This document shows positions 7,531-39,533 of a stretch of 39,737 nt of DNA, piece by piece. Below the pieces are notes generated by a model. That model was not told the DNA's origin. It saw nothing but the letters and a program-made list of their open reading frames with translations, and made no database searches. Each line of letters opens with the position of its first letter. The stretch's first letter is position 1. Source of the stretch: Nitrospira japonica (GTDB taxonomy: Bacteria; Nitrospirota; Thermodesulfovibrionia; Thermodesulfovibrionales; SM23-35); contig DYFC01000049.1 in NCBI GenBank assembly GCA_020725385.1, positions 1 to 39,737 on the forward strand, given 5' to 3'. The position numbers and the translations under genes were made by a program.

Positions 7531-8241
7531 ATGATAATAGGAAAAAATGAAATTCATGTTTGGGAAATTAATCTTTGCCTTAATTTGAATAAATTAGAAA
7601 ATTTTATTTCCATGTTATCCGATGAAGAAAAGAAAAAAGCTTTGGCTTTTCGCTTTTCTGATGATAGTAAAAGATACATAATCTCACATGCAGTTTTAAG
7701 ATTATTACTCGCAAAATATACTAAAAAAAAATCTGAAGAAATAATTTTCCATACTGACAATCGAGGCAAACCGCATCTTCTACTTAATCCTGATGAACCA
7801 AATATTTTTTTTAATCTATCACACTCTCATGAAATGGCTGTAATTGGTATCTCAAATGAATATGAAATTGGAGTGGATATTGAATATTTATTGAGAGAAG
7901 TAAATTCAGAAGATATAGCAAGAAGATTTTTTACAACCAATGAAAATAAAAAATTAAATAGCCTTCCGGAAAATTTGAAGAAAGAGGCTTTCTTAAGATG
8001 CTGGACAAGAAAAGAAGCTTATTTGAAAGCAAAAGGAATTGGAATCCACGGGTCATTAAAAAGTTTTGAGGTTTCATTATTTCCTGAAGAAATACCCGAA
8101 ATTCTTATAATAGATAGATTAACTTTGGAGAAAAATAATTGGAGTTTATTTGATATAATTCATATTCATAATTATATCGGAGCAGTTGCTGTTAACGGAA
8201 AATGCCAAACTGTAAAATATTTTAATTTTTATTTCAATTAA
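7531..8241 (+). CDS. Sfp-type 4'-phosphopantetheinyl transferase
   Basis: GKP, FNLSHS, IGVDIE, WTRKEAYLKAKG motifs. Confidence 0.92.
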   Translation: MIIGKNEIHVWEINLCLNLNKLENFISMLSDEEKKKALAFRFSDDSKRYIISHAVLRLLLAKYTKKKSEEIIFHTDNRGKPHLLLNPDEPNIFFNLSHSHEMAVIGISNEYEIGVDIEYLLREVNSEDIARRFFTTNENKKLNSLPENLKKEAFLRCWTRKEAYLKAKGIGIHGSLKSFEVSLFPEEIPEILIIDRLTLEKNNWSLFDIIHIHNYIGAVAVNGKCQTVKYFNFYFN

Positions 8242-9818
8242 CCGGTCTTGGTCAGATCCCTGAAGAACTGTTTATTCTCTGCGTAAAGAAGACCGTCCTC
8301 AAAAGTTATGAGGTCAGACTTGTATAAATTTGCGAGAGATATTTCCAGAGGTATAAAATCTTCGGTACCTATGGTTGTTTTTTGTGACCTTATCTGATGA
8401 GTTTTCCCTTCACGTATGAAATTTTTAATTCCAATACTGTTGATAATTGCCTCATAAGCGAGTATTCTTCCTTCTCCTGTTTTAAGAGGAATTAATTTTT
8501 GGGCAAAAATAAAAACAAGATTATCGGCAAGTCTTGTCCTTATAAATAACTGTTGATGTGGTGGAAACATATTTACTATTCTTTCGAGTGTTGTTACCGA
8601 ATTACTGGCATGTAATGACGCTATAACAAGATGACCTGTATCTGCAGCCTGTAAAGTAACATTAAAACTTTCAGCATCTCTGAGATCTCCAATTACAATA
8701 ACATCGGGATCCTGTCGATAAACATGCTTCATTCCTTCAATAAATGATAATGTATCGGTGCCGATTTCCCTTTGGTTAACATTGCTTTTTTTATGTTTGT
8801 GCAAATATTCTATAGGCTCTTCAAAAGTTATGATGTTACATTTTCTTGTTGAATTAATAATGTCAACTATTGTATTTAAAGTGGTTGTTTTTCCATGCCC
8901 GGCAGGACCTGAAATAAGTATAAGTCCCTGTGGCATTAGTATATATTCTTTAATCCATTCCGGGATATTAAGTTCTTCAATTGATGGAAGAATATCTTTT
9001 ATATATCTAAGAGTAATTGAAATCGAGTTTCGTTGTTTATACAAATTGACCCTGAAACGCCCGATTTCTGGAAAAGTTATTGCAGTATCAAAATCTCCTT
9101 TTTCCTGAAAAAGTTCCCACTTTTTATCTTTTAACAGTTCTTTTGCATAACGTATACAATCATCGGGTGTTAAAGCATTCATGGATGCTCTTCTAATATC
9201 ATTACCAAATTTTATTGATGGAGGCACACCTGCTGTAAGCATTAAATCAGTTGCAGGTGAATTCGAAAGATATTTCAAAAGATTTATTAAAGAAGGGGCT
9301 TTTCTAATCTCTATCTTGTGACTATCTTTTTCAATATTTGAACCTGAAATACCGTTTTCGGGATGTTCTACAAGTTTTTTTAGAACAGCTTCCATTTGCG
9401 ATGCTAAAACAACAACAGGATTAACTTTTTTGCCTAATGAAAATTCTATATCTCTAATGGCTATCATATCCTTCGGATTAACCATTGCAAGGGTAATAGA
9501 GTTTTCATCAAAAGTTACGGGGAGAACTTTCATTGCCTTTATTTTATCAATAGGCATTATTTTGATAACTTCAGGTGAAATGTCAATTTTGGATAAATTC
9601 AAAGAAGGTATACCAACCTGCTTGCTTAAGAAAGACAACATAGTATCGGTATCAACAAAACCCATTTCTACCAGAATTGAACCGAGATGGCCACCGACCT
9701 GTGCCTGTTTTTTTAAAGCATCTTTTAGCTGGTTTGTGTTTATTAGACCTTGTTCTACGAAAAGTTCACCAATACGTTGTTTTTTCTTTCCTAATAAAGA
9801 CATCTTTTTTTCTAACAT
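8238..9818 (-). CDS. PilT/PilU-family type IV pilus ATPase with N-terminal MshEN/T2SSE_N domain
   Basis: RIGELFVEQGLI...LKKQ MshEN repeat; GRFRVN, Walker A GPAGHGKTT, EEPIE, RQDPDVIVIGDLRD, TGHLV, IKNFIRE. Confidence 0.88.
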   Translation of the reverse strand: MLEKKMSLLGKKKQRIGELFVEQGLINTNQLKDALKKQAQVGGHLGSILVEMGFVDTDTMLSFLSKQVGIPSLNLSKIDISPEVIKIMPIDKIKAMKVLPVTFDENSITLAMVNPKDMIAIRDIEFSLGKKVNPVVVLASQMEAVLKKLVEHPENGISGSNIEKDSHKIEIRKAPSLINLLKYLSNSPATDLMLTAGVPPSIKFGNDIRRASMNALTPDDCIRYAKELLKDKKWELFQEKGDFDTAITFPEIGRFRVNLYKQRNSISITLRYIKDILPSIEELNIPEWIKEYILMPQGLILISGPAGHGKTTTLNTIVDIINSTRKCNIITFEEPIEYLHKHKKSNVNQREIGTDTLSFIEGMKHVYRQDPDVIVIGDLRDAESFNVTLQAADTGHLVIASLHASNSVTTLERIVNMFPPHQQLFIRTRLADNLVFIFAQKLIPLKTGEGRILAYEAIINSIGIKNFIREGKTHQIRSQKTTIGTEDFIPLEISLANLYKSDLITFEDGLLYAENKQFFRDLTKTG

Positions 9819-18713: not shown

Positions 18714-20381
18714 ATGCAGGAACTGATTAATAAAGATTTATTCAGTCTGGCAATCTTGAACTGGATCGACAAGATTGCCGATCAGGGGATATTCGCAACA
18801 GACACTGAATTAATAATCCGGAGCTGGAACTTATGGCTTGAAAGACAAACAGGTAAATTATCCAAAGAAATGATTGGCAAGAAGCTCTTCGAAGTTTATC
18901 CAGAACTTTCTGTAAAGAATATGAGTACATACTATATGGAAGCATTGAAAGGACAGGTAACGGTTCTTTCCCAGAGATTTCACAAATATCTTATACCTAT
19001 AAAACTTTCAAAGAGCGAGGCATTTTTTGAGCATATGCAGCAGAATGTAAAAATAGCTCCTTTAGTTGATGATGACAAAATTGTCGGAACAATTACTGTA
19101 ATTCAGGATATTACCGAAAGATTGCTCAGAGAACTTGAGCTTAAGAAAGAAAAAGATGAATGGGAGATGACATTTAATGCCTTACCCGATTTAATTGCTA
19201 TTATTGATAAAGATTATCGTATGTTAAAGATTAATAAGGCAATGGCAGAAAAATTAGGAATTTCTCAGGAAAGAGCAAAAGGTCTTTACTGTTATGAATA
19301 CGTTCATAGGAATAAATTTCAACCCGAACTATGTCCGCATAGAAGAACAATTTTAGAGGGAAAAACCTTCACAGAAGAAATCTACGAAGAAAATCTCGGG
19401 GGGTATTATTTAATATCAACTTCTCCAATATACGATGAAAAAGGCTTAATCAGGGGTTCAGTACATATCGCACATGATATTACCAAAAGAAAGCTCGCAG
19501 AAGAAAAACTGAAGGAATCAGAAGAAATATTCAGGGATTTCCTTGAAAATGCTCATGAACTAATACAGAGTGTTAATGAAAGCGGAAGATTTCTTTATGT
19601 TAACAAAAGGTGGAAAGAAGTTCTTGGCTACACCGACGAAGAAATAAAACATTTAACTTTGAAAGATATATTAAAACCAGAGAGCTATGAAAATTGCATA
19701 AAAAAATTTGAAGAGACAAAAAGCGGAAAAGTTCTGGAAAATGTTGAAGCTATATTTATAACAAAATATGGAGATGAAATTATTGCAGAAGGGAATATAA
19801 GTCCGCAGATTAAAAACGGGAAATTTATTTGTACAAGAGCTATTTTCAGAGATATAAGCATTCATAAAAGGATTGAAGAAACACTGCGGGCTCTATCAGT
19901 GCTGGATGCTCTTACAGGTTTATATAACAGAAGGGGTTTTGCTGCTATTGCAAGACAGCAACTCGAACTTGCTATCAGAATGAAAAGAAATGCAATTATG
20001 TTTTTTATAGATATAGACGGGATGAAATGGATTAACGATAATCTTGGCCATTCAGAAGGAGATAATGCGCTAATTGATACTGCTAATATCTTAAAGCAGA
20101 CCTTCAGGACATCAGATGTAATTGGAAGAATTGGTGGAGATGAGTTTGTTGTTTTTGCAATGAATATTGGCAAAGATAATGCGAAAATACTCTTTAAACG
20201 TCTTAATCAGAACGTTAATAATCTAAATAAACTTAAAAAACGTCCTTATAAATTATCTTTAAGCACAGGATTTACTGATATTGATATAGGACATCCTCCC
20301 ACTCTTGAAGAAATGATCCGGAAAGCAGATAATATTATGTATGAACAAAAAAAGAAAAAGAAAATTCAGAGGATAAATTGA
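18714..20381 (+). CDS. Triple-PAS diguanylate cyclase
   Basis: Three PAS/PAC segments, DALTGLYNRR, DIDGMKWIND.LGH..GD, RTSD I-site, GGDEF. Confidence 0.93.
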   Translation: MQELINKDLFSLAILNWIDKIADQGIFATDTELIIRSWNLWLERQTGKLSKEMIGKKLFEVYPELSVKNMSTYYMEALKGQVTVLSQRFHKYLIPIKLSKSEAFFEHMQQNVKIAPLVDDDKIVGTITVIQDITERLLRELELKKEKDEWEMTFNALPDLIAIIDKDYRMLKINKAMAEKLGISQERAKGLYCYEYVHRNKFQPELCPHRRTILEGKTFTEEIYEENLGGYYLISTSPIYDEKGLIRGSVHIAHDITKRKLAEEKLKESEEIFRDFLENAHELIQSVNESGRFLYVNKRWKEVLGYTDEEIKHLTLKDILKPESYENCIKKFEETKSGKVLENVEAIFITKYGDEIIAEGNISPQIKNGKFICTRAIFRDISIHKRIEETLRALSVLDALTGLYNRRGFAAIARQQLELAIRMKRNAIMFFIDIDGMKWINDNLGHSEGDNALIDTANILKQTFRTSDVIGRIGGDEFVVFAMNIGKDNAKILFKRLNQNVNNLNKLKKRPYKLSLSTGFTDIDIGHPPTLEEMIRKADNIMYEQKKKKKIQRIN

Positions 20382-20442: not shown

Positions 20443-21534
20443 GTGAATACTTCACCTGATTTTTTCAAAAAGATAAATACAATACTTGTTGTGGATGACG
20501 AAGCTTTTATGAGAGAATCTATATCTGATTTTCTCAAAGAGTATGGTTTCAATATAATTACAAGTCCGGATGCAACTGATGCACTCAATATTATTAAATC
20601 TGATGGTTCCATTGACATAATACTTTCAGATATAAGGATGCCGGGTATCAGCGGGATAGAACTTCTTGAAAGAATACATTCTTTAAGTCCTGAAAAACCA
20701 GTTATTCTTATGACTGCTTATGCAGATCTCGATGTAGCAATAGATGCGATTAGAAAAGGAGCTTTTGATTTCTTAATAAAACCCTACAAACCCGAGTACC
20801 TGCTGCATATTATTGAAAAAGCTGTTAATAACATAAAGCTTAAGATAATTGAGAAGGATTACAGAAGCATGCTCGAACATACTGTTAATGAGAGAACAAA
20901 AGAACTTGTTGATGCTTTGCAAATGGTTAAGCATATGAGCGAAGAATTAATGCAGAGATTAACAATTGTTGCTGAATACCGTGATGAAGAAACAGGAATG
21001 CACATCAAAAGAGTGGGGCTTTATGCAAAACAGATTGCTATTAATTTGAAATTACCCGAAGATTTCATTGAAATAATATCATTCGCCTGCCCAATGCATG
21101 ACATAGGTAAAGTCGGGATACCGGATCATATATTACTAAAACCTGGGCCCCTCAATGAAGAGGAATTCAATATCATGAAGATGCATCCTTCTATTGGCGC
21201 CAGCATTCTCTCGGGCTCAAAACATTATGGAATTCAAATTGCTGCATCGATAGCACTAACACACCATGAGAGATGGGATGGTACCGGCTATCCTAACGGC
21301 CTTAAGGGCGACCAGATACCCATAGAAGGAAGAATAGCCATGCTTTGCGATCAATATGATGCTTTAAGGAGCAAAAGACCTTACCGTGACTCATTAAGTC
21401 ATGAAATAGCATATAAAATAATAACCGAAGGTGATGGCAGGACCGAGCCCAAACATTTTGATCCAGCTATTTTAAAAGCATTTAAGGAAACTGCTTCTAT
21501 TTTTGATGAGATCTACGAACAACACAAGGATTAA
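20443..21534 (+). CDS. REC - HD-GYP cyclic-di-GMP phosphodiesterase (RpfG-like)
   Basis: [47 protein letters not shown]. Confidence 0.93.
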
Positions 21535-24669: not shown

Positions 24670-26019
24670 ATGAATGAAAAAAATATAATAATCATAGACA
24701 CTGATAATGAAACAACTTTGAAAATTAAGACCGTTCTTGAATCCGAAGGATATATAATTCATAATACCTCTGGCAAATCTGAAAGCTTATCCCTTGCAAA
24801 AAAACTCGTTCCATCTCTTATTTTTATTAACATCGCTATGCGTGATGTAAGCGGACTTGAGATCGCAAAAGCTATTCATGATACTGATACACTTTCAAAA
24901 ATCCCGATAATAATTATCACTCCTCATGGTGGAACTGTTGAACCCCGCTATACAGAAATGTACGGAATAGTGGATTTTCTGAAAAGATCCTTCACACCCG
25001 AAGAACTAATTTCAAAAGTAATTGATATAACCGAAACCCAACCTGAAATTGATAAAGTGGATGAAAAAGAAGTTTCAGATTTATCCGATGTAAAAACAAT
25101 AGGGCTTCACGAAGAGCCTGCTGAAATAGAGATTCCAATTGAGACTACAGCTTATTCTGAAGATACAAAATTCCAATCGGTTCTTATTGAAGAACAAAAG
25201 ATGAGTATAGAAGAAGAAAAAGCAAAACCAGAAGATATGCCCATTCATGATACTCCGGTATCAGAAGGACAATCAATTGAATCAAAGGCTGAAACACCAT
25301 TGAATGAAGAAAAGATACCCGGGTCAGAATCATCCAAAGAAGATAATATAACTGGCATTGACACATCGTCTGATTTGGCTTCAGAGAATATATTAGAAGA
25401 ACCACTTGTTGAAAAAAGGTCTGAAACAAAAAGTATAGCTCTGATAGCATCTGCAATTGCTGTTTTTGTTTTAATCATAGGAGCAGGGCTTTATTTATTT
25501 AGCAGCTTCTCTAAAAAAAGTGAGGTATCTCCTCCTATGAAATCGCCTGTTCAGGAAAAAGATATAATCACTGAAAAAATACCGGAACAAGAAAAAACTT
25601 TAACTCAATCAGAAACAATTCCGGATACTTCTAAGATAAAGCCCCCTACTGAAAAACAACAAGAATATTCTAAAGAATCAGCCCATATAAAGACACCACA
25701 AAAAACAACTGAGCCTACAGGTAAACAAAAAACCTTGTCTAAAACTCCTCCAAGTACCGAAAAGAAAAAGATAAAACAATTTTATAGTGTTCAATTCGGG
25801 GTTTTTAAAAATGAAAATTTTGCCAGATCTTTTTCAAAAGAACTTTCGAAAAATAACCTTAATACCTTTATCGAAAAAACAACCGGAAAAAATAATTCTG
25901 TTTTATATAGAGTCTTATCCGGAAAGTTTGCAAATAAAAAAGAGGCCGAAAAGTTTGCAAAAGAAATTCTGTCTAAAAATAAAATCAAAACAGTGATATA
26001 TAAAGTAACGGAAAAATAA
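24670..26019 (+). CDS. Pseudo-receiver - acidic linker - TM - SPOR domain protein
   Basis: N-terminal REC fold (IIIIDTD...IFINIAM..SGLE), Glu-rich linker, TM IALIASAIAVFVLIIGAGLYLF, SPOR (YSVQFGVF..NFA...YRVLSGKF...EA). Confidence 0.8.
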   Translation: MNEKNIIIIDTDNETTLKIKTVLESEGYIIHNTSGKSESLSLAKKLVPSLIFINIAMRDVSGLEIAKAIHDTDTLSKIPIIIITPHGGTVEPRYTEMYGIVDFLKRSFTPEELISKVIDITETQPEIDKVDEKEVSDLSDVKTIGLHEEPAEIEIPIETTAYSEDTKFQSVLIEEQKMSIEEEKAKPEDMPIHDTPVSEGQSIESKAETPLNEEKIPGSESSKEDNITGIDTSSDLASENILEEPLVEKRSETKSIALIASAIAVFVLIIGAGLYLFSSFSKKSEVSPPMKSPVQEKDIITEKIPEQEKTLTQSETIPDTSKIKPPTEKQQEYSKESAHIKTPQKTTEPTGKQKTLSKTPPSTEKKKIKQFYSVQFGVFKNENFARSFSKELSKNNLNTFIEKTTGKNNSVLYRVLSGKFANKKEAEKFAKEILSKNKIKTVIYKVTEK

Positions 26020-26044: not shown

Positions 26045-27274
26045 TTGCTAAGATTTTATAATACATTAAGCAAAAAAATAGAAGTTTTTAATCCTACAAA
26101 TAAGAATGTAGTTTCAATATTTACATGTGGTCCTTCTGTATATCAAAGATCTCATATAGGGAATTTCAGAACATTTCTTTTTGAAGATATTCTTTTGCGT
26201 TATCTTGAATTTTTGGGTTATAGCGTCGTACGGGGCATGAATTTCACAGACATCGAAGATAAGGCTATTCAAGAAGCTGATAAAAAAAATCTTCCTCTTA
26301 AAACAATTACCGAAAATAATATAAGAAAATTCATTCATGAGATGCAAATGTTAAGGATGAAAAAACCCGATTTTTTGCCGAGAGCATCAGAAAATATAGA
26401 TATAGCTATTGATATAATTGAAATTTTGCTTCAAAAAGGATTAGCTTACAAACATAAAAATAATATATATTTCGAAGCACTTAAATTCAAAGATTTCGGG
26501 AAACTCTACGGACTTGATCTTTCTAAATGGCCTGATAAGAAAAAACGCTTTCACAAAGATACATATCCTGGAGTTCAATGGAATCTCGGAGATTTTATTC
26601 TCTGGCATGGATGTAAAAAAAATGATAAATATTGCTGGAATTCCCCTTTTGGTCCCGGGAGACCCGCATGGAATATTCAGGACCCTTCGATGATTTTGAA
26701 ACATTTCTCCGAGACACTATCAATTTATTGTGGCGGAATTGACAATCTTTACAGACATCACGATTATAGTCTTGCCATAATTGAATCAATTAAACCATAT
26801 CCAATGGCAAAATACTGGCTCCATTGTCACCATCTTTATATTAACGGGGAAAAGATGTCTAAAAGTAAAGGTAATATTATTTATATTGACGACCTCATAA
26901 AAAAAGGATTTTCCATGACAGAAATAAGATGTTTTCTATTATGCGGTCATTACAGAGAAATACTTAATTATTCTGAGCCAAGTCTAAGAAATATTTCATT
27001 ACAACTGAAAATGGCAAGGGAAAAAGTTGCTGAAATTAATAATATCGCAAAAAAATATAAGAACCGGAACTTGTCGGTGACAAGTAAATATAATAGAAAG
27101 CTTATTGGCATCTTTAAACAAAATATGAATAATGATCTTCGTGTAAAAGAAGCTTTTATTGCAATCACAGATTCTGTCTTGAGAATCAATACTAATAAAT
27201 TAAAACCTGAAAATGCTTGTGAAATAATCCATGCACTTAAGAAAATCGACAAAGTACTTATGGTAATATTTTGA
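26045..27274 (+). CDS. Cysteinyl-tRNA synthetase-like paralogue (C-terminally truncated, altered active site)
   Basis: CGPSVY..SHIGN, TDIEDK, DFILW, GRPAW, KMSKS, HYR; 409 aa; TTG start. Confidence 0.85.
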   Translation: MLRFYNTLSKKIEVFNPTNKNVVSIFTCGPSVYQRSHIGNFRTFLFEDILLRYLEFLGYSVVRGMNFTDIEDKAIQEADKKNLPLKTITENNIRKFIHEMQMLRMKKPDFLPRASENIDIAIDIIEILLQKGLAYKHKNNIYFEALKFKDFGKLYGLDLSKWPDKKKRFHKDTYPGVQWNLGDFILWHGCKKNDKYCWNSPFGPGRPAWNIQDPSMILKHFSETLSIYCGGIDNLYRHHDYSLAIIESIKPYPMAKYWLHCHHLYINGEKMSKSKGNIIYIDDLIKKGFSMTEIRCFLLCGHYREILNYSEPSLRNISLQLKMAREKVAEINNIAKKYKNRNLSVTSKYNRKLIGIFKQNMNNDLRVKEAFIAITDSVLRINTNKLKPENACEIIHALKKIDKVLMVIF

Positions 27275-27318
27275 ATTTTAAGTTTTGAATATTGAGTCTT
27301 GAGTTTTGAGTTTTGAAT
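27270..27318. repeat. Heptamer tandem repeat, 7 copies of consensus TTTGA(A/G)T
   Basis: tttgaat tttaagt tttgaat attgagt cttgagt tttgagt tttgaat. Confidence 0.85.
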
Positions 27319-27335
27319 TTTTACAGGAGGTTAAT

Positions 27336-28976
27336 ATGTTTTCAAATTTCAATAATGCAGCAGAATGCTGGAAGGAGATATTATCTAATATAGAAAAAAA
27401 CAGAAACCTGCTAACTATTATCGAGAAATTTGCTAGAGAAAACACTTCTCCATCGAAGATAGTTTTTGGAACATCAGGATGGCGAGGAGAAATCGGAAGC
27501 GATTTCACTTTCAATAATGTAAGGATTGTAACTTCAGCTATTGTTAATATGTTCAAAAATGCAAATGATACCTTATTGAAATCTCTTGGTGTTAAGGATT
27601 TTGAAGATGTAATGAAACGGGGAATTATAGTAGGCCATGACAATCGTTTTCTTGGTAAAGAATTTGCTATGGAAGTAATTGGAATTCTTCAAAAAGAAGG
27701 TATCAAAACATGGTATGCTGGAGAGGCTCCAACACCGCAATTTTCTGCCGGGATAGAAATCTTAAATGCTGCCTGCTCAATCAATCTAACTCCTTCTCAC
27801 AATCCTGCTAATTATGCCGGTTTTAAATTTAATCCATCTGATGGCGGACCAGCAGGACCGGAAATCACTTCCAAAATAGAGGAAATTGCTAACCACATGA
27901 TGAAAAAAATGGTTTCATTTCCACATGTAAAAGTCAAAGACATTGAATATCTAGACCTTAATGAATTATATATTCGCTATTTGAATGAAAGGAGAACCAT
28001 TGACCTCATCAAAATCAAGAAATTTATAGATACCGAAGATTGTTTCATTTGTGTTGATAATGTTCATGGTTCAACAAGGGGTTGTCTTGAAAAAATAATC
28101 GGGATCAATAACAAAATTGTCTATTTACGGACAGAGGACGATTACCTATTTGGTGGTATTTCTCCTGAACCATCTGAGAAGAATATGCAGAAGGTAGATG
28201 AAAAACTAAAAGGGAAAAAAGCAAAGTTTAAGCTCGGAGTTATAATGGACCCTGATGGAGACAGGATAAGATTTTCTGATGGAAATATGCAAATACCGAT
28301 GAATTATTTCGGAGCTATGGCATTTCATTATCTTCACAAGATTAAAGGCTTTAAAGGAATAGTTGCTAAATCTGTTGGAACAAGCAATCTGGTTAATGCT
28401 ATCGCAGAGAAACTCGGTGTGCCTGTTAGAGAGACAAAGGTTGGATTTAAAAACTTCAGACCATTTATGCTCAAAAATTCAAACGAAAAAGCAATTGTTG
28501 CTTTCGAAGAATCCGATGGCATTTCAGGGTATAATCATACTCTTGAAAAAGATGCTTTGTTTGGATTTCTCCTCGCCTTAGAAATGATTGCAGTAATAGG
28601 CAAGAATCTGAGTGAATATTTAAACGAGATTATGGCTGAGTTTGGTTATTACTATCCAGACAGGTCAGGAATAACAGTCTCTCCTGATTTGGTTGGCGAA
28701 CCTTTAATAAAAGGGCTCGCAAAGATAAGCGATAGATATAAGAAAGGTTCGGCTGTAACTATTGGAAACCATGATAGAATAATCAAGGATGTTATTACTA
28801 TCGATGGAACTAAACTTGTCTTTGACGATGGTTCATGGCTTATGATAAGACCGTCGGGAACCGAGCCAAAAGTTCGTTTTTATATAGAAGCACGAACAGA
28901 AGAAGGGAAAAAAGATGTCTTTATTTTAGCTGAAAAAATAACAAAAGAAGCTCTGCTTGATATTAAAAAGCCTTAA
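27336..28976 (+). CDS. Phosphoglucomutase/phosphomannomutase family protein
   Basis: FGTSGWRG, TPSHNP phosphoserine, DPDGDR, VGFK, EES, RPSGTEP. Start at ATG 27336 with SD AGGAGG. Confidence 0.95.
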   Translation: MFSNFNNAAECWKEILSNIEKNRNLLTIIEKFARENTSPSKIVFGTSGWRGEIGSDFTFNNVRIVTSAIVNMFKNANDTLLKSLGVKDFEDVMKRGIIVGHDNRFLGKEFAMEVIGILQKEGIKTWYAGEAPTPQFSAGIEILNAACSINLTPSHNPANYAGFKFNPSDGGPAGPEITSKIEEIANHMMKKMVSFPHVKVKDIEYLDLNELYIRYLNERRTIDLIKIKKFIDTEDCFICVDNVHGSTRGCLEKIIGINNKIVYLRTEDDYLFGGISPEPSEKNMQKVDEKLKGKKAKFKLGVIMDPDGDRIRFSDGNMQIPMNYFGAMAFHYLHKIKGFKGIVAKSVGTSNLVNAIAEKLGVPVRETKVGFKNFRPFMLKNSNEKAIVAFEESDGISGYNHTLEKDALFGFLLALEMIAVIGKNLSEYLNEIMAEFGYYYPDRSGITVSPDLVGEPLIKGLAKISDRYKKGSAVTIGNHDRIIKDVITIDGTKLVFDDGSWLMIRPSGTEPKVRFYIEARTEEGKKDVFILAEKITKEALLDIKKP

Positions 28977-28988
28977 CTTAAAAACAGT

Positions 28989-29321
28989 TTATTTTTTTGT
29001 TATCGAAAACAAAGGTTCTTTGATACTCTCACTCTTGCAAACAGGGCATTTCCCAGGTTTTCTAAGCTTTTCTCTTTTTATAAATTCAAAACCACATCTG
29101 TTGCAAACAGGAGGGATTATTTTTAATCTATACTCCTTCTTTCCTACAACAGTTTTTCTAATATGTTCAAGATGTTCATAAACTTCTTTTTCTGGAATTG
29201 CTATCTGAACCGATATTTCTTTTGCAGACAATTTTATTCCTTCAAGCACTCCAAGTATTGCCTGCCTTATTGTTTCTTTTCTTTCAACAGGCATGTAAGG
29301 TTTAAGCGATCTGTTTTTCAT
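28989..29321 (-). CDS. HTH + Zn-ribbon predicted transcriptional regulator (COG3357-like)
   Basis: TIRQ, SAKEIS...EKEVYEHLEHI, CNRCGF, CPVCKSE. Confidence 0.8.
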   Translation of the reverse strand: MKNRSLKPYMPVERKETIRQAILGVLEGIKLSAKEISVQIAIPEKEVYEHLEHIRKTVVGKKEYRLKIIPPVCNRCGFEFIKREKLRKPGKCPVCKSESIKEPLFSITKK

Positions 29322-29328
29322 TAATTTT

Positions 29329-30444
29329 TTATCCCGAAAGAACTCTATACATTGATTTAATAAAATTATCTAAAAGAAATGGATTAAACATCCCTTCTGA
29401 TTCATTTTTCATAACAAAAAGTATTTCTTCGAATTCCAGTTCTTTACGATATGGCCTTCTACTTCGTAAGGCGTCAAAATAGTCTGAGATTGCAACTATC
29501 TGCGAGCAAATATGCTGTTTCCTGCCATCATTTTTTATTTTAGGATAACCTTTTCCATCAAATCTCAGATGATGTTCATAAGCTACGATTGGTGCAAGAC
29601 GGGTTAGACTTTCTATTTTTGCGAGATATTTCGAACCATAGACCGTATGAAGTTTAATTTCATTCCATTCCTGTTCATCAAGTTTTCCTTTCTTTTCAAG
29701 AATATTAACATTGACGAAAATTTTGCCAACATCATGCAAAAGTGCAGCTATTCCTATATCATGCTTTATGTCATCTCTGACTCCAAGAGTTTCAGCCTGA
29801 AACATTGACAAGACAGCAACATTTGTTGCATGTACATATGTATATTCACTTGCGGATTTTATAGGGCATAATAGCTTTAAAATATTAGCTTCTTTCTTGA
29901 AAGCTGCAGCAAATTTTAAGACAATTTCTTCCAATCCGTAAGTTTCGAGTTTCTTAAAGTGTGACACATTAGTAAATATTTCCTTTACCCCATTTGCTTG
30001 TAATGCTGATAATTGACTTATATCTCCAATCCTAAAATCTTCTGTTAAATTTTGCCCCCCTAATCTTATATCAACAGCTCCGGTTAAAATATGTGGAAAT
30101 CCTTTTGTGACTTTATCTTTATCTAACAACGAAACAATAAAGTCTTTTATTTCCATAAATTCAACACCCTTCAAAATATCAACACGTGAGATACCTTTGC
30201 GCTTGAGTTTCCTTATCAGATTTACCACCTGAATCCCGGCATTTCTTATCAATGTTTTATTAATAACAATATCATCTTCTATAATCATAATCTCGAGAGA
30301 TTCTGAATCATTGAATAAAATATTTAAAGCATCTAATGCTTTCGTAATGAACTCGTTTACAGATGCATGTTCTCCCGAATAAAGAGAACAATTTAAGACA
30401 GCAGATGTAAATGATGAAAGGAACTTATTAATTGTCTCGATCAT
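29329..30444 (-). CDS. HD-GYP phosphodiesterase with uncharacterised N-terminal domain
   Basis: YTYVH, LHDVGK, EHHLRFDGKGYP, FDALRSRRPY. Confidence 0.9.
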   Translation of the reverse strand: MIETINKFLSSFTSAVLNCSLYSGEHASVNEFITKALDALNILFNDSESLEIMIIEDDIVINKTLIRNAGIQVVNLIRKLKRKGISRVDILKGVEFMEIKDFIVSLLDKDKVTKGFPHILTGAVDIRLGGQNLTEDFRIGDISQLSALQANGVKEIFTNVSHFKKLETYGLEEIVLKFAAAFKKEANILKLLCPIKSASEYTYVHATNVAVLSMFQAETLGVRDDIKHDIGIAALLHDVGKIFVNVNILEKKGKLDEQEWNEIKLHTVYGSKYLAKIESLTRLAPIVAYEHHLRFDGKGYPKIKNDGRKQHICSQIVAISDYFDALRSRRPYRKELEFEEILFVMKNESEGMFNPFLLDNFIKSMYRVLSG

Positions 30445-38164: not shown

Positions 38165-38656
38165 TTATTCTGCTTTTACCGGGATCTTCTTGGTTTCTTT
38201 TATTGCTTTAGCTGTCTTAGGTAACGATACAGTAAGAACTCCTTTTTTGAATTCAGCTTTTGCCTTGTCTGTATCTATTTCTGCCGGCAAAGGAATAGTA
38301 CGGGTAAATGAACCATAGGACCTTTCCATTCTATAATAATCTTTGCCTTTGTCTTCCTTTTCCTGCTTCTTTTCACCTTTGATAGTTAAAGTATCTTTTG
38401 TGATCGAAACATCGAGGTCCTTGTCATCAATTCCAGGAAGTTCTGCTGAAACAGTAATCTCTTTATCTGACTCCTTAACATCAACTTTTGGAGTAAATGT
38501 TCCGACCCCGAATTTTTCCCATGACGGCCAGACATCAAAACCTCTGAAAAAGTTATCGAACAGAGAATTCATTTCCCTTCTTAAGAGCTCAAACGGGCTA
38601 TACTCTGTTCTTTTTACAGGAAGCTTCTCTTTTGTTGCAGGACTGTTTTTTGCCAT
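38165..38656 (-). CDS. Hsp20/alpha-crystallin small heat shock protein
   Basis: PKVDV.E, AELPG, ERSYGSFTR, AEFKKGVL, IPV. Confidence 0.95.
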   Translation of the reverse strand: MAKNSPATKEKLPVKRTEYSPFELLRREMNSLFDNFFRGFDVWPSWEKFGVGTFTPKVDVKESDKEITVSAELPGIDDKDLDVSITKDTLTIKGEKKQEKEDKGKDYYRMERSYGSFTRTIPLPAEIDTDKAKAEFKKGVLTVSLPKTAKAIKETKKIPVKAE

Positions 38657-38674
38657 ATCTTATACCTCCTTTTT

Positions 38675-39082
38675 TTATGCTTCAGCAGTTACTGCTATTT
38701 TCTTTGTTTTAGCAGCTTCTGCTTTCGGCAAGATTATTTTAAGAACCCCATTTTTTACTGTTGCCTGTATTTTCTCTCTATCGACCTCTTCGGTTAATGT
38801 AAAAACCCTTTTAAAATCTCCTATGCCATACTCACTAATATAAAGCGTATGCTTTTCAGGAACTAAAGGGTCAACCTTTCCATAGATGGTTAATTCATTT
38901 TTCTCAAGTGTAATATCAACAGATTTTTCATCAACACCCGGCATATCTGCAGTAAGAATAATATCGTCTTTTCTTTCAACAATATCAACATGTGGCATAT
39001 ATACTGTCACCGCTCTTGTGTGTTCACCTTTGTGTGGAGATTCAGCCTCTTTTTTCTGAATATCTTTTGTTGTATCTGACAT
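38675..39082 (-). CDS. Hsp20/alpha-crystallin small heat shock protein
   Basis: PHVDIVE, ADMPGV, F.R.F.L, ATVKNGVL, KIAV. Confidence 0.95.
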   Translation of the reverse strand: MSDTTKDIQKKEAESPHKGEHTRAVTVYMPHVDIVERKDDIILTADMPGVDEKSVDITLEKNELTIYGKVDPLVPEKHTLYISEYGIGDFKRVFTLTEEVDREKIQATVKNGVLKIILPKAEAAKTKKIAVTAEA

Positions 39083-39101
39083 ATTTTCTCACCTCCTAAA
39101 A

Positions 39102-39533
39102 TTATTCAGATTTTACAGTAATTTTTCTTGGTTTTTCAGCCTCGGCTCTCGGGAGTTTAATCTGTAAAACACCATTAATATATTTTGCTTCAACTTTACC
39201 GGATTCAATCGTAAAAGGCATCTCAATTGATTTTGTAAACTGGCCATGCCAGCGCTCCCTTCTGTGATATGTCTCTCCTTCCTTTAATTCTTCGGCTTGT
39301 CTTGAACCACGAATTGTTAACGTCTTATCAGCAACTGAAATATCAATGCTTTCAGGGTCAACTCCCGGAATCTCTGTTGTCAGAAGAGCTTCATCTGTTG
39401 AAACCCATACATTAACAGCAGGAAATTCGATGTCTGTAGAACTTGCCCATCTTGATAACGCTCGATGCATCCTGTCAAATTCTTTCCATGGATCAAAAGA
39501 CCAATCAAATCTCTCTAAATCTGACCAGAGCAT
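39102..39533 (-). CDS. Hsp20/alpha-crystallin small heat shock protein
   Basis: FPAVNVW, EIPGV, RRER..GQF, AKYINGVL, KITV. Confidence 0.95.
   Translation of the reverse strand: MLWSDLERFDWSFDPWKEFDRMHRALSRWASSTDIEFPAVNVWVSTDEALLTTEIPGVDPESIDISVADKTLTIRGSRQAEELKEGETYHRRERWHGQFTKSIEMPFTIESGKVEAKYINGVLQIKLPRAEAEKPRKITVKSE

Follow-up and report, generated by a model that had tools for sequence, protein, structure and literature searches.

What does a cysteinyl-tRNA synthetase (CysRS) do once it has lost its anticodon domain and part of its zinc site has been rewritten? The question is raised by a gene at 26045–27274 (+) of a 39,737-nucleotide stretch from Nitrospira japonica (contig DYFC01000049.1, assembly GCA_020725385.1), a single entire 39.7-kb contig referred to here as the window. 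The gene encodes a 409-residue anticodon-domain-less class I ligase from a TTG start, which is credible since the N-terminus MLRFYNTL fits the pattern MLxLFNTL of its relatives. An initial annotation, made from the letters alone, had described an intact CysRS paralogue that activates something other than cysteine. Our analysis points, at a probability that we put near 0.55, to a functional member of a large uncharacterised CysRS-derived family, the WNIQD/RHHDY family, which would have lost the anticodon domain, rebuilt the side-chain pocket and become an ATP-dependent amino-acid ligase with a non-canonical acceptor.

Residues were mapped through HMMER alignments to E. coli CysRS (1li5_A) and to 8qhp_A. 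The class I core is present in the translation as HIGN and KMSKS: the CGPSVY loop and the ATP motif HIGN lie at 26126–26164 (+; CGP, residues 28–30; CGPSVY, 28–33; HIGN, 37–40) and the KMSKS loop at 26852–26866 (+; residues 270–274), both intact as first read, as is Cys28 of CGP. In the first of these, Cys28 is the first zinc ligand, and Gly29 and Ser31 are α-amino binders. Two motifs that lie between these are altered. GRPAWNIQD (26657–26683, +; residues 205–213) replaces the canonical GRPGWHIEC and has Asp213 in place of the zinc ligand Cys209, and SIYCGGIDNLYRHHDYS (26720–26770, +; residues 226–242), the equivalent of canonical DIHGGGxDLxFPHHENE, aligns opposite DIHGGGSDLMFPHHENE in solved CysRS chains; it retains His238 (zinc ligand H234), has lost the fourth ligand E238 and has novel Arg237, Asp240 and Tyr241. 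The alignment to 1li5_A equates W209, N210, Q212, D213 and Y228 with E. coli W205, H206, E208, C209 and H224, and H238, H239, D240, Y241 and S242 with H234, H235, E236, N237 and E238. The four substitutions listed in the initial annotation (C209 to D, E238 to S, H206 to N and H224 to Y) are therefore all real in the alignments to the two structures. The zinc ligands of E. coli CysRS are reportedly Cys28, Cys209, His234 and Glu238, a set ascribed to Newberry and colleagues in 2002. Two of the four are changed in the window protein (Cys209 to Asp213, Glu238 to Ser242), and the Cys28 and His238 positions are retained; both cysteine ligands of the E. coli enzyme are confirmed in PMC5660078, as far as the accessible text goes.

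The protein stops after a C-terminal helical bundle (26975–27271, +), a degenerate DALR_2-like segment with helices at residues 311–335, 348–361, 367–379 and 388–405 in the AlphaFold (AF2) model, and has no CysS_C anticodon domain. Pfam assigned the class I (C) catalytic domain tRNA-synt_1e (PF01406, E 3.7e-77) and matched neither DALR_2 nor CysS_C (PF23493) in the window protein, the latter not even at E values up to 10, and in one family member (P0005) DALR_2 appeared below threshold (21.4 bits, cut-off 22), reaching the C-terminus. The nearest canonical representative (P0131, of Aminicenantes type) carries tRNA-synt_1e followed by DALR_2 (355–411) and CysS_C (419–465). The best NCBIfam model, cysS (TIGR00435), spans only profile positions 1–401 of 466, and the next gene begins 31 nt downstream. 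In tblastn searches of the window, neither five canonical CysRS nor the window protein picked up a second CysRS-like stretch, and no second CysRS-like gene was seen in the window or in 80 related loci. Pfam, model coverage, tblastn and the spacing of the next gene thus agree that the protein ends after the bundle without continuation, as had been proposed.

Curated models name the protein neither cysS nor MshC, the L-cysteine:GlcN-Ins ligase of mycothiol synthesis, in keeping with its description as a paralogue. It scored 321.8 bits on TIGR00435 (cut-off 340) and 169.7 on the MshC model TIGR03447 (cut-off 485.1), and all six family members tested missed the cysS cut-off (260–322 bits), the five distant ones with 260.7–315.6 bits there and 164–189 on the MshC model. 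Canonical P0131 and P0153 reached 456.5 and 486.6 bits on TIGR00435, and representatives without an anticodon-binding domain that retain the zinc ligands do pass its cut-off. The AF2 model is confident (pLDDT 92.4, pTM 0.92), and its Foldseek TMq was 0.87 to CysRS 8qhp_A and 0.86 to 1u0b_B, with MshC slightly lower at 0.82–0.84 (8hfn 0.84, 3c8z_A 0.82); the sequence match to 8qhp_A has E 1.6e-69. Canonical bacterial CysRS is therefore the best match in both sequence and structure, with like catalytic motifs, but the family differs from it in the missing CysS_C, the degenerate DALR_2, the two changed zinc ligands and its position in the tree as a separate clade on a long stem.

That family could be defined by CGPS, HxGN, KDTYPGxxWNxGDF, RP[SA]WN[IV]QD, GGxDNxxRHHDY and KMSKS in a protein of 401–456 residues, all of which the window protein has. 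A search of 5.8 billion proteins gave at least 120 close relatives (402–426 residues, 56–81% identity), named in databases as 'class I tRNA ligase family protein' or 'cysteinyl-tRNA synthetase'. With HMMER against 1.84 billion representatives and no length filter, 17 of the best 150 carried the family motifs, all at 424 residues or fewer, so that no fusion was seen among these 150, and the remainder were canonical WHIEC/PHHENE enzymes of about 455–500 residues or other variants. A profile built from five distant full-length representatives added 115 members, every one bearing the motifs; among the sources named for distant members are Desulfoferrobacter suflitae, Desulforhabdus, Syntrophobacteraceae, Candidatus Bathyarchaeota and Candidatus Lokiarchaeia. 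Relatives are encoded in at least 587 species genomes (587 of the 599 pattern matches listed, on contigs of one genome per species), for the most part from anaerobes of the Nitrospirota and Thermodesulfobacteriota. The complete genomes OY970295.1, CP070704.1 and CP070657.1 each have a member, as does the 2.46-Mb contig CAVSHF010000003.1. Fusion proteins were also considered as a hint to function and discarded, the apparent long reading frames being wrong-frame readings over the GC-rich gene of a MATE exporter that is treated below. The literature searched, including reviews of synthetase paralogues (PMC9437257, PMC11580382; accessible text), held no description of the family, with subscription journals little covered and a prior mention possible.

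In a maximum-likelihood tree of 93 rows that included the seven nearest canonical representatives, the family formed a single clade apart from canonical CysRS (branch SH-aLRT 100, length 0.98), with the window protein inside it. Nitrospirota and Thermodesulfobacteriota are interleaved within the clade (6 and 11 label changes, respectively; the starred branches force at least six for the Thermodesulfobacteriota label), which suggests transfer between phyla, although the labels are those of the submitters and are noisy.

Conservation was scored in 314 distinct full-length relatives of 401–456 residues. Invariant in all of them are C28, G29, P30, H37, G39, N40, T68, D69, K73, W209, D213, D233, R237, H238, H239, D240, Y241, H260, M271 and K273; N210 and Q212 are each kept in 313, and in the KMSKS loop K270 and S272 are kept in 312 and S274 in 308. 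The substitutions are consequently not private to one genome, since the same residues are mostly fixed across the homologues. Two of the altered positions vary: the counterpart of H224 is Tyr in only 225 of 314 (position 228), and position 242, that of E238, cannot be a ligand because it is a mix of Thr (178), Ser (43), Asn (43), Val (34) and Ile (13). When 125 family sequences were compared with 124 canonical ones, the latter picked by the WHxEC motif, the sites of N210, Q212 and D213 were H, E and C in 124 of 124, Ser31 was fixed in the family where 123 of 124 have Thr, and 17 positions were conserved within each group yet differed between the two; the family also had insert residues of its own in the CP domain.

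The same data bear on whether the protein is an inactive relic or a pseudoenzyme with no catalytic role, as a score below the cysS cut-off, a missing domain and a variable neighbourhood might suggest. Nei-Gojobori dN/dS was 0.067–0.247 in all 16 unsaturated locus pairs (both pairs involving the window were saturated), and the family is thus strongly under purifying selection. Moreover, 61 columns are invariant in 59 sequences, the catalytic motifs are fixed in 308–314 of 314 relatives, the window carries an unbroken reading frame, every one of the 314 sequences falls at 401–456 residues, and the structure model is confident. The gene is therefore intact, as first thought, rather than a decaying pseudogene, and a relic is scarcely credible. 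The invariance of the adenylation motifs makes an active paralogue that forms adenylates the natural way to read these sequences, and a protein that activates no amino acid at all appears improbable.

How such an enzyme might work is best approached through MshC. Like the family, MshC is a CysRS fold of about 410 residues that ends after the helical bundle, and the accessible text of PMC9736012 describes in it HIGH and KMSKS, α-amino binders of the Gly/Thr/Thr type and, at matching positions, a metal site of three ligands. There, G44, T46 and T83, the counterparts of Gly29, Ser31 and Thr68 here, hold the α-amino group, and zinc is held by C43, C231 and H256 together with the substrate thiol; the acceptor of MshC is a small molecule. 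By analogy, ATP and an L-α-amino acid bound in the CysRS/MshC pose would yield an aminoacyl-adenylate in the family, as expected from the invariance of HIGN, KMSKS, the ribose-binding Asp233 and the α-amino binders Gly29, Ser31 and Thr68. Its Cys28, Asp213 and His238 are the counterparts of C43, C231 and H256, with one Cys replaced by Asp. The site for the metal seems to have been rebuilt and not lost, and a metal may still be bound because Cys28 and His238 are invariant; the side chain of the amino acid would then be read at this remodelled, probably metal-bearing site, its fourth ligand gone, amid new pocket residues that appear to have been fixed together (Asn210, Gln212, Arg237, Asp240, Tyr241 and His263). 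In contrast to MshC, however, the family has Cys/Asp/His instead of Cys/Cys/His, a CP loop and extra pocket residues of its own, and hosts in Nitrospirota, Thermodesulfobacteriota and archaea rather than Actinomycetota, with no mycothiol genes nearby. It shares with MshC the length and fold, but not the model score, the zinc ligand set, or the hosts and mycothiol genes. Overall, the family would work most like MshC and derives from CysRS.

Asp/Cys/His zinc sites that bind thiolates exist elsewhere, for example in protein farnesyltransferase. The claim that the enzyme adenylates a non-cysteine substrate for some other acceptor therefore has to be divided: the intact enzyme and its invariant adenylation motifs stand, but it is unsafe to go from two changed ligands to a substrate that is not cysteine, because a Cys/Asp/His site such as Cys28/Asp213/His238, fixed in 314 of 314, may still bind both metal and thiol. 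From the pocket residues, the substrate is probably an amino acid other than cysteine, and cysteine or another thiol amino acid is a possible but less favoured choice. A specific form of the latter would be a cysteine-specific ligase in the manner of MshC, whose Cys/Asp/His site holds zinc and which couples cysteine to an acceptor amine or hydroxyl, so generating a low-molecular-weight thiol or cysteine conjugate handled by the MATE exporter. The invariance of Cys28, Asp213, His238 and Trp209 (W205 in E. coli) would fit such an enzyme, as would the three protein ligands plus substrate thiol that suffice for zinc in MshC (PMC9736012), the occurrence of full-length CysRS with Asp209 (WHIED...HHECE, such as P0153 with its 486.6 bits on cysS) and the scattered redox, thiol and Fe-S genes near the family (Trx2 in six loci, SOD in three, and others). 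Yet Cys209 is kept in 124 of 124 canonical sequences, albeit in a set picked by the WHxEC motif, the full-length Asp209 forms gain a Cys at 237 where the family has Tyr241 in 314 of 314, six more pocket positions have shifted together and are now invariant, no mshA/B/D-like gene is a recurrent neighbour within 10 kb on either side, and scores on the MshC model stay at 164–189 bits against a cut-off of 485. Taken together, a cysteine ligase of this kind seems rather unlikely.

Variation at these ligands is found outside the family as well. Six full-length CysRS of 455–467 residues (P0153, P0176, P0210, P0218, P0226 and P0266) read WHIED...HHECE, and the change of Cys209 to Asp together with a Cys at 237 in the P0153 group is an apparent ligand swap within a bona fide cysS. 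Other CysRS-like groups without the anticodon-binding domain, of about 360–413 residues, are represented by P0137, P0144, P0154, P0191, P0194, P0221, P0167, P0249 and P0264; some of them have all the zinc ligands and pass the cysS cut-off, none reaches that of MshC, and ligand variants among such groups read WNVQC...HHENT, WHLQD...HHEAQ and WHILD...HHESI.

Loss of a cysteine ligand also brings to mind the second activity of CysRS, an ATP-independent and pyridoxal phosphate-dependent synthesis of cysteine persulfide, which the family might have kept as a dedicated enzyme while giving up tRNA charging. According to the accessible text of PMC5660078, E. coli C28D and C28/209D variants keep persulfide synthesis with translation activity strongly reduced, and this activity requires K73, K76, K266 and K269 while ATP and tRNA are dispensable. 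The family retains K73 (314 of 314), K270 (312) and K273 (314), and its hosts are sulfur-cycling anaerobes with some redox or Fe-S genes beside it. Nonetheless, the second lysine of KIIK is not kept (position 76: A in 90, K in 66 and R in 54 of 314), an ATP-independent activity leaves H37, G39, N40 and Asp233 at 314 of 314 unexplained, and Cys28, which is dispensable for the E. coli persulfide activity (PMC5660078), is invariant here, all of which makes a dedicated persulfide synthase very unlikely. A zinc-sparing paralogue was rejected. The Zur-regulated CysRS paralogues (Haas et al., 2009, PMC2770081; Cupriavidus CysS2, PMC10882993) are, in the accessible text, extra CysRS beside a housekeeping copy that retain their zinc-binding residues and are found together with COG0523, FolE2 and zinc-uptake genes; neither applies to the family, and no COG0523, ZnuABC or Zur gene was found in the window annotation or among recurrent neighbours.

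If the family is an amino-acid ligase, the activated amino acid would pass to an acceptor other than ordinary tRNA-Cys, probably gripped by a family-specific loop of the CP domain, RFHKDTYPGVQWNLGDFILWH (26546–26608, +; residues 168–188), which has a two-residue insert relative to canonical CysRS. The elements that would make the contact are W162, P163, R168-F-H-K-D-T-Y-P-G, W179-N and G-D-F. Within the loop D172, Y174 and N180 are found in 314 of 314 relatives and G176 and W179 in 313, with these residues missing or gapped in the 124 canonical sequences, and residues 171–180 are the lowest-confidence block of the AF2 model (pLDDT 64), as would be expected for a loop that is ordered by its substrate. 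The loop is thus a candidate acceptor-binding element.

Its location raises the alternative of a tRNA-dependent enzyme, that is, an anticodon-domain-less synthetase for a dedicated or unusual tRNA or for a modified base, or in the extreme the only CysRS of its host. CysRS reads the first acceptor-stem base pair at this location (PMC5389517, accessible text), the loop is rich in W, K, R, F, H and Y, and the helical bundle is kept. There are, moreover, precedents on RNA. CysRS* of Desulfobacterales (Mukai et al., 2016, PMC5389517) is described in the accessible text as a second CysRS of sulfate-reducing deltaproteobacteria, without an anticodon domain and with changed CP1 residues, whose gene lies downstream of selC* tRNA-Cys and selB* and which is proposed to cysteinylate that tRNA. 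GluQRS (YadB) is likewise a truncated class I paralogue without an anticodon domain that acts on tRNA and took on a new acceptor (PMC9437257, accessible text). The family shares with CysRS* the absence of the anticodon domain, but not the selC*/selB* context; at its own Cys209 site it has Asp. GluQRS differs in that it stems from GluRS, keeps the parental amino acid and targets queuosine in tRNA-Asp, and no such target is indicated for the family. ARAGORN found no tRNA in the window and, in the 60 loci scanned (L001–L060 of the 80), seven unrelated ones in six loci (Arg, Val, Leu, Ser, Leu, Pro, others), none recurrent; the window gave no Rfam match to a riboswitch or other RNA, 14 MATE-bearing loci gave a single ordinary tRNA, and no selB-like or elongation-factor-like gene was among recurrent neighbours. 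The interleaving of the two phyla in the tree (6 and 11 changes) is unlike a vertically inherited essential synthetase, and one Cys ligand is lost, a kind of change that strongly reduces translation activity in E. coli CysRS C28D and C28/209D (PMC5660078). A tRNA-dependent role is accordingly unlikely.

The neighbourhood gives the amino-acid ligase reading a further element. It was examined in the best 80 loci, all from metagenome-assembled genomes and with about 10 kb on each side, which come from Thermodesulfovibrionia and other Nitrospirota, Syntrophales, Syntrophobacterales, Desulfatiglandales and a few others, with no Actinomycetota among the hosts named. Only one neighbour recurs widely, a gene for a MATE exporter of about 456 residues (Pfam MatE; 231 bits on TIGR00797, cut-off 147), which in 52 of the 80 lies immediately upstream on the same strand, with gaps mostly of 3–60 nt; it is one gene away in one more, and in two loci the upstream DNA is too short for a call. 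With MATE directly upstream in about two-thirds of relatives, a small-molecule acceptor or a membrane-crossing product would be favoured, that is, an MshC-like ligase with a pump, and given this coupling and the lack of a linked tRNA, a small-molecule acceptor or product is somewhat more likely than RNA. In its fullest and still tentative form, this amounts to a widespread two-gene module of anaerobic bacteria (the ligase being also archaeal), in which a Cys/Asp/His ligase would couple an amino acid other than cysteine, perhaps a non-proteinogenic one, to a small-molecule acceptor, and a dedicated MATE pump would export the product. A bolder variant is that a dedicated RNA may be charged with a new amino acid.

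Several points weigh against the ligase reading and its extension to an exported product. The mechanism rests on homology throughout, for adenylation, metal, substrate and acceptor alike; the Cys/Asp/His triad could still select cysteine; and the conserved CP loop, rich in basic and aromatic residues, would equally suit an RNA acceptor. MATE is not found within 10 kb upstream in 25 of 80 loci, nor in the window, and no fewer than 10 changes on the tree are required to account for where it is adjacent, so that the pump is not obligatory. Finally, no other biosynthetic gene is recurrently linked in the 80 loci, and for this reason no pathway can be named. A shared operator upstream of the MATE operon was also looked for by k-mer and inverted-repeat counts in 47 upstream regions, with only clade-level similarity.

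In the window, the slot held in most relatives by Trx2 and MATE is occupied by a gene with Pfam Response_reg and SPOR domains (24670–26019, +), which ends 25 nt upstream of the CysRS-like gene; ribD lies further upstream. Since one related locus (L006) has the order response regulator-SPOR, Trx2 (on the opposite strand), MATE, CysRS-like gene and mutase, both Trx2 and MATE were apparently lost from the window lineage. The product of 24670–26019 is itself an unusual fusion of an N-terminal receiver, a long acidic low-complexity linker and a C-terminal, peptidoglycan-binding SPOR domain, and a hydrophobic stretch in the linker may span the membrane. Downstream lies a phosphohexomutase of 556 residues (27306–28976, +), 31 nt past the stop codon of the CysRS-like gene, whose best NCBIfam match, TIGR03990 (archaeal GlmM), reaches 207 bits against a cut-off of 439 and which falls below every equivalog cut-off. 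No terminator-like site was found on the + strand between these genes. The phosphohexomutase had been pointed out as a neighbour of the CysRS-like gene, and it does adjoin it in the window; as a general functional partner it was rejected, since it is directly downstream in only 9 of 80 loci, all from one Nitrospirota subclade (about 70% identity across these nine Thermodesulfovibrionales loci). Other neighbours are scattered: besides Trx2 and SOD, they include rubrerythrin, AhpC, NifU, IscS-like, SufBD, DsbD and a CDF transporter, the CDF cation-efflux genes forming a cluster in three loci, and this redox and Fe-S theme is a lead only. The Trx2-type gene (zinc ribbon plus thioredoxin) stands on the opposite strand beside the MATE-ligase pair in six Nitrospirota loci (L006, L011, L013, L028, L029 and L042). 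A small PF0610-like winged-helix and zinc-ribbon protein is encoded at 28989–29321 (−); in 11 of 80 loci a homologue follows the ligase gene, on the strand opposite to it.

New biochemistry has come to light with each of several truncated synthetase paralogues, MshC, GluQRS and PoxA/EpmA among them. By its domain content the family would belong with these, a known kind, with a pocket and CP loop of its own, and it probably carries out undescribed chemistry. Its members occur in at least 587 species genomes and number in the thousands among metagenomic proteins, and it is old enough to extend over Nitrospirota and Thermodesulfobacteriota as well as, to judge from source names, Bathyarchaeota and Lokiarchaeia. 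The label 'cysteinyl-tRNA synthetase' on its members is wrong, and systematic mis-annotation of this sort may mask the true absence or presence of CysRS in metagenome-assembled genomes. Once the amino acid, metal and acceptor are known, they would show how a zinc-thiolate selectivity filter has been re-engineered in nature, and the product may be a secreted or envelope metabolite of subsurface anaerobes; the module, if true, would mean that aminoacyl metabolites include a class not seen before and that class I synthetase folds have gained a further amino-acid specificity. At least one host name is that of a cultured organism, Desulfoferrobacter suflitae, which makes the question experimentally tractable.

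Elsewhere in the window, 555–1715 (−) encodes a protein like type III sulfide:quinone reductase, which scores highest on the model of the 'selenoprotein subtype' (326.8 bits against a cut-off of 525); a selenoprotein was ruled out because the stop codon is not TGA, and the gene encodes a non-selenoprotein form. A PilT-family ATPase with an N-terminal MshE-type cyclic-di-GMP-binding domain (NF053729) is encoded at 8238–9818 (−). The window is rich in cyclic-di-GMP genes, with a PAS-GGDEF protein at 18714–20381 and HD-GYP-like proteins at 20443–21534 and 29329–30444, and three Hsp20-family small heat-shock genes lie in tandem at 38165–39533 (−).

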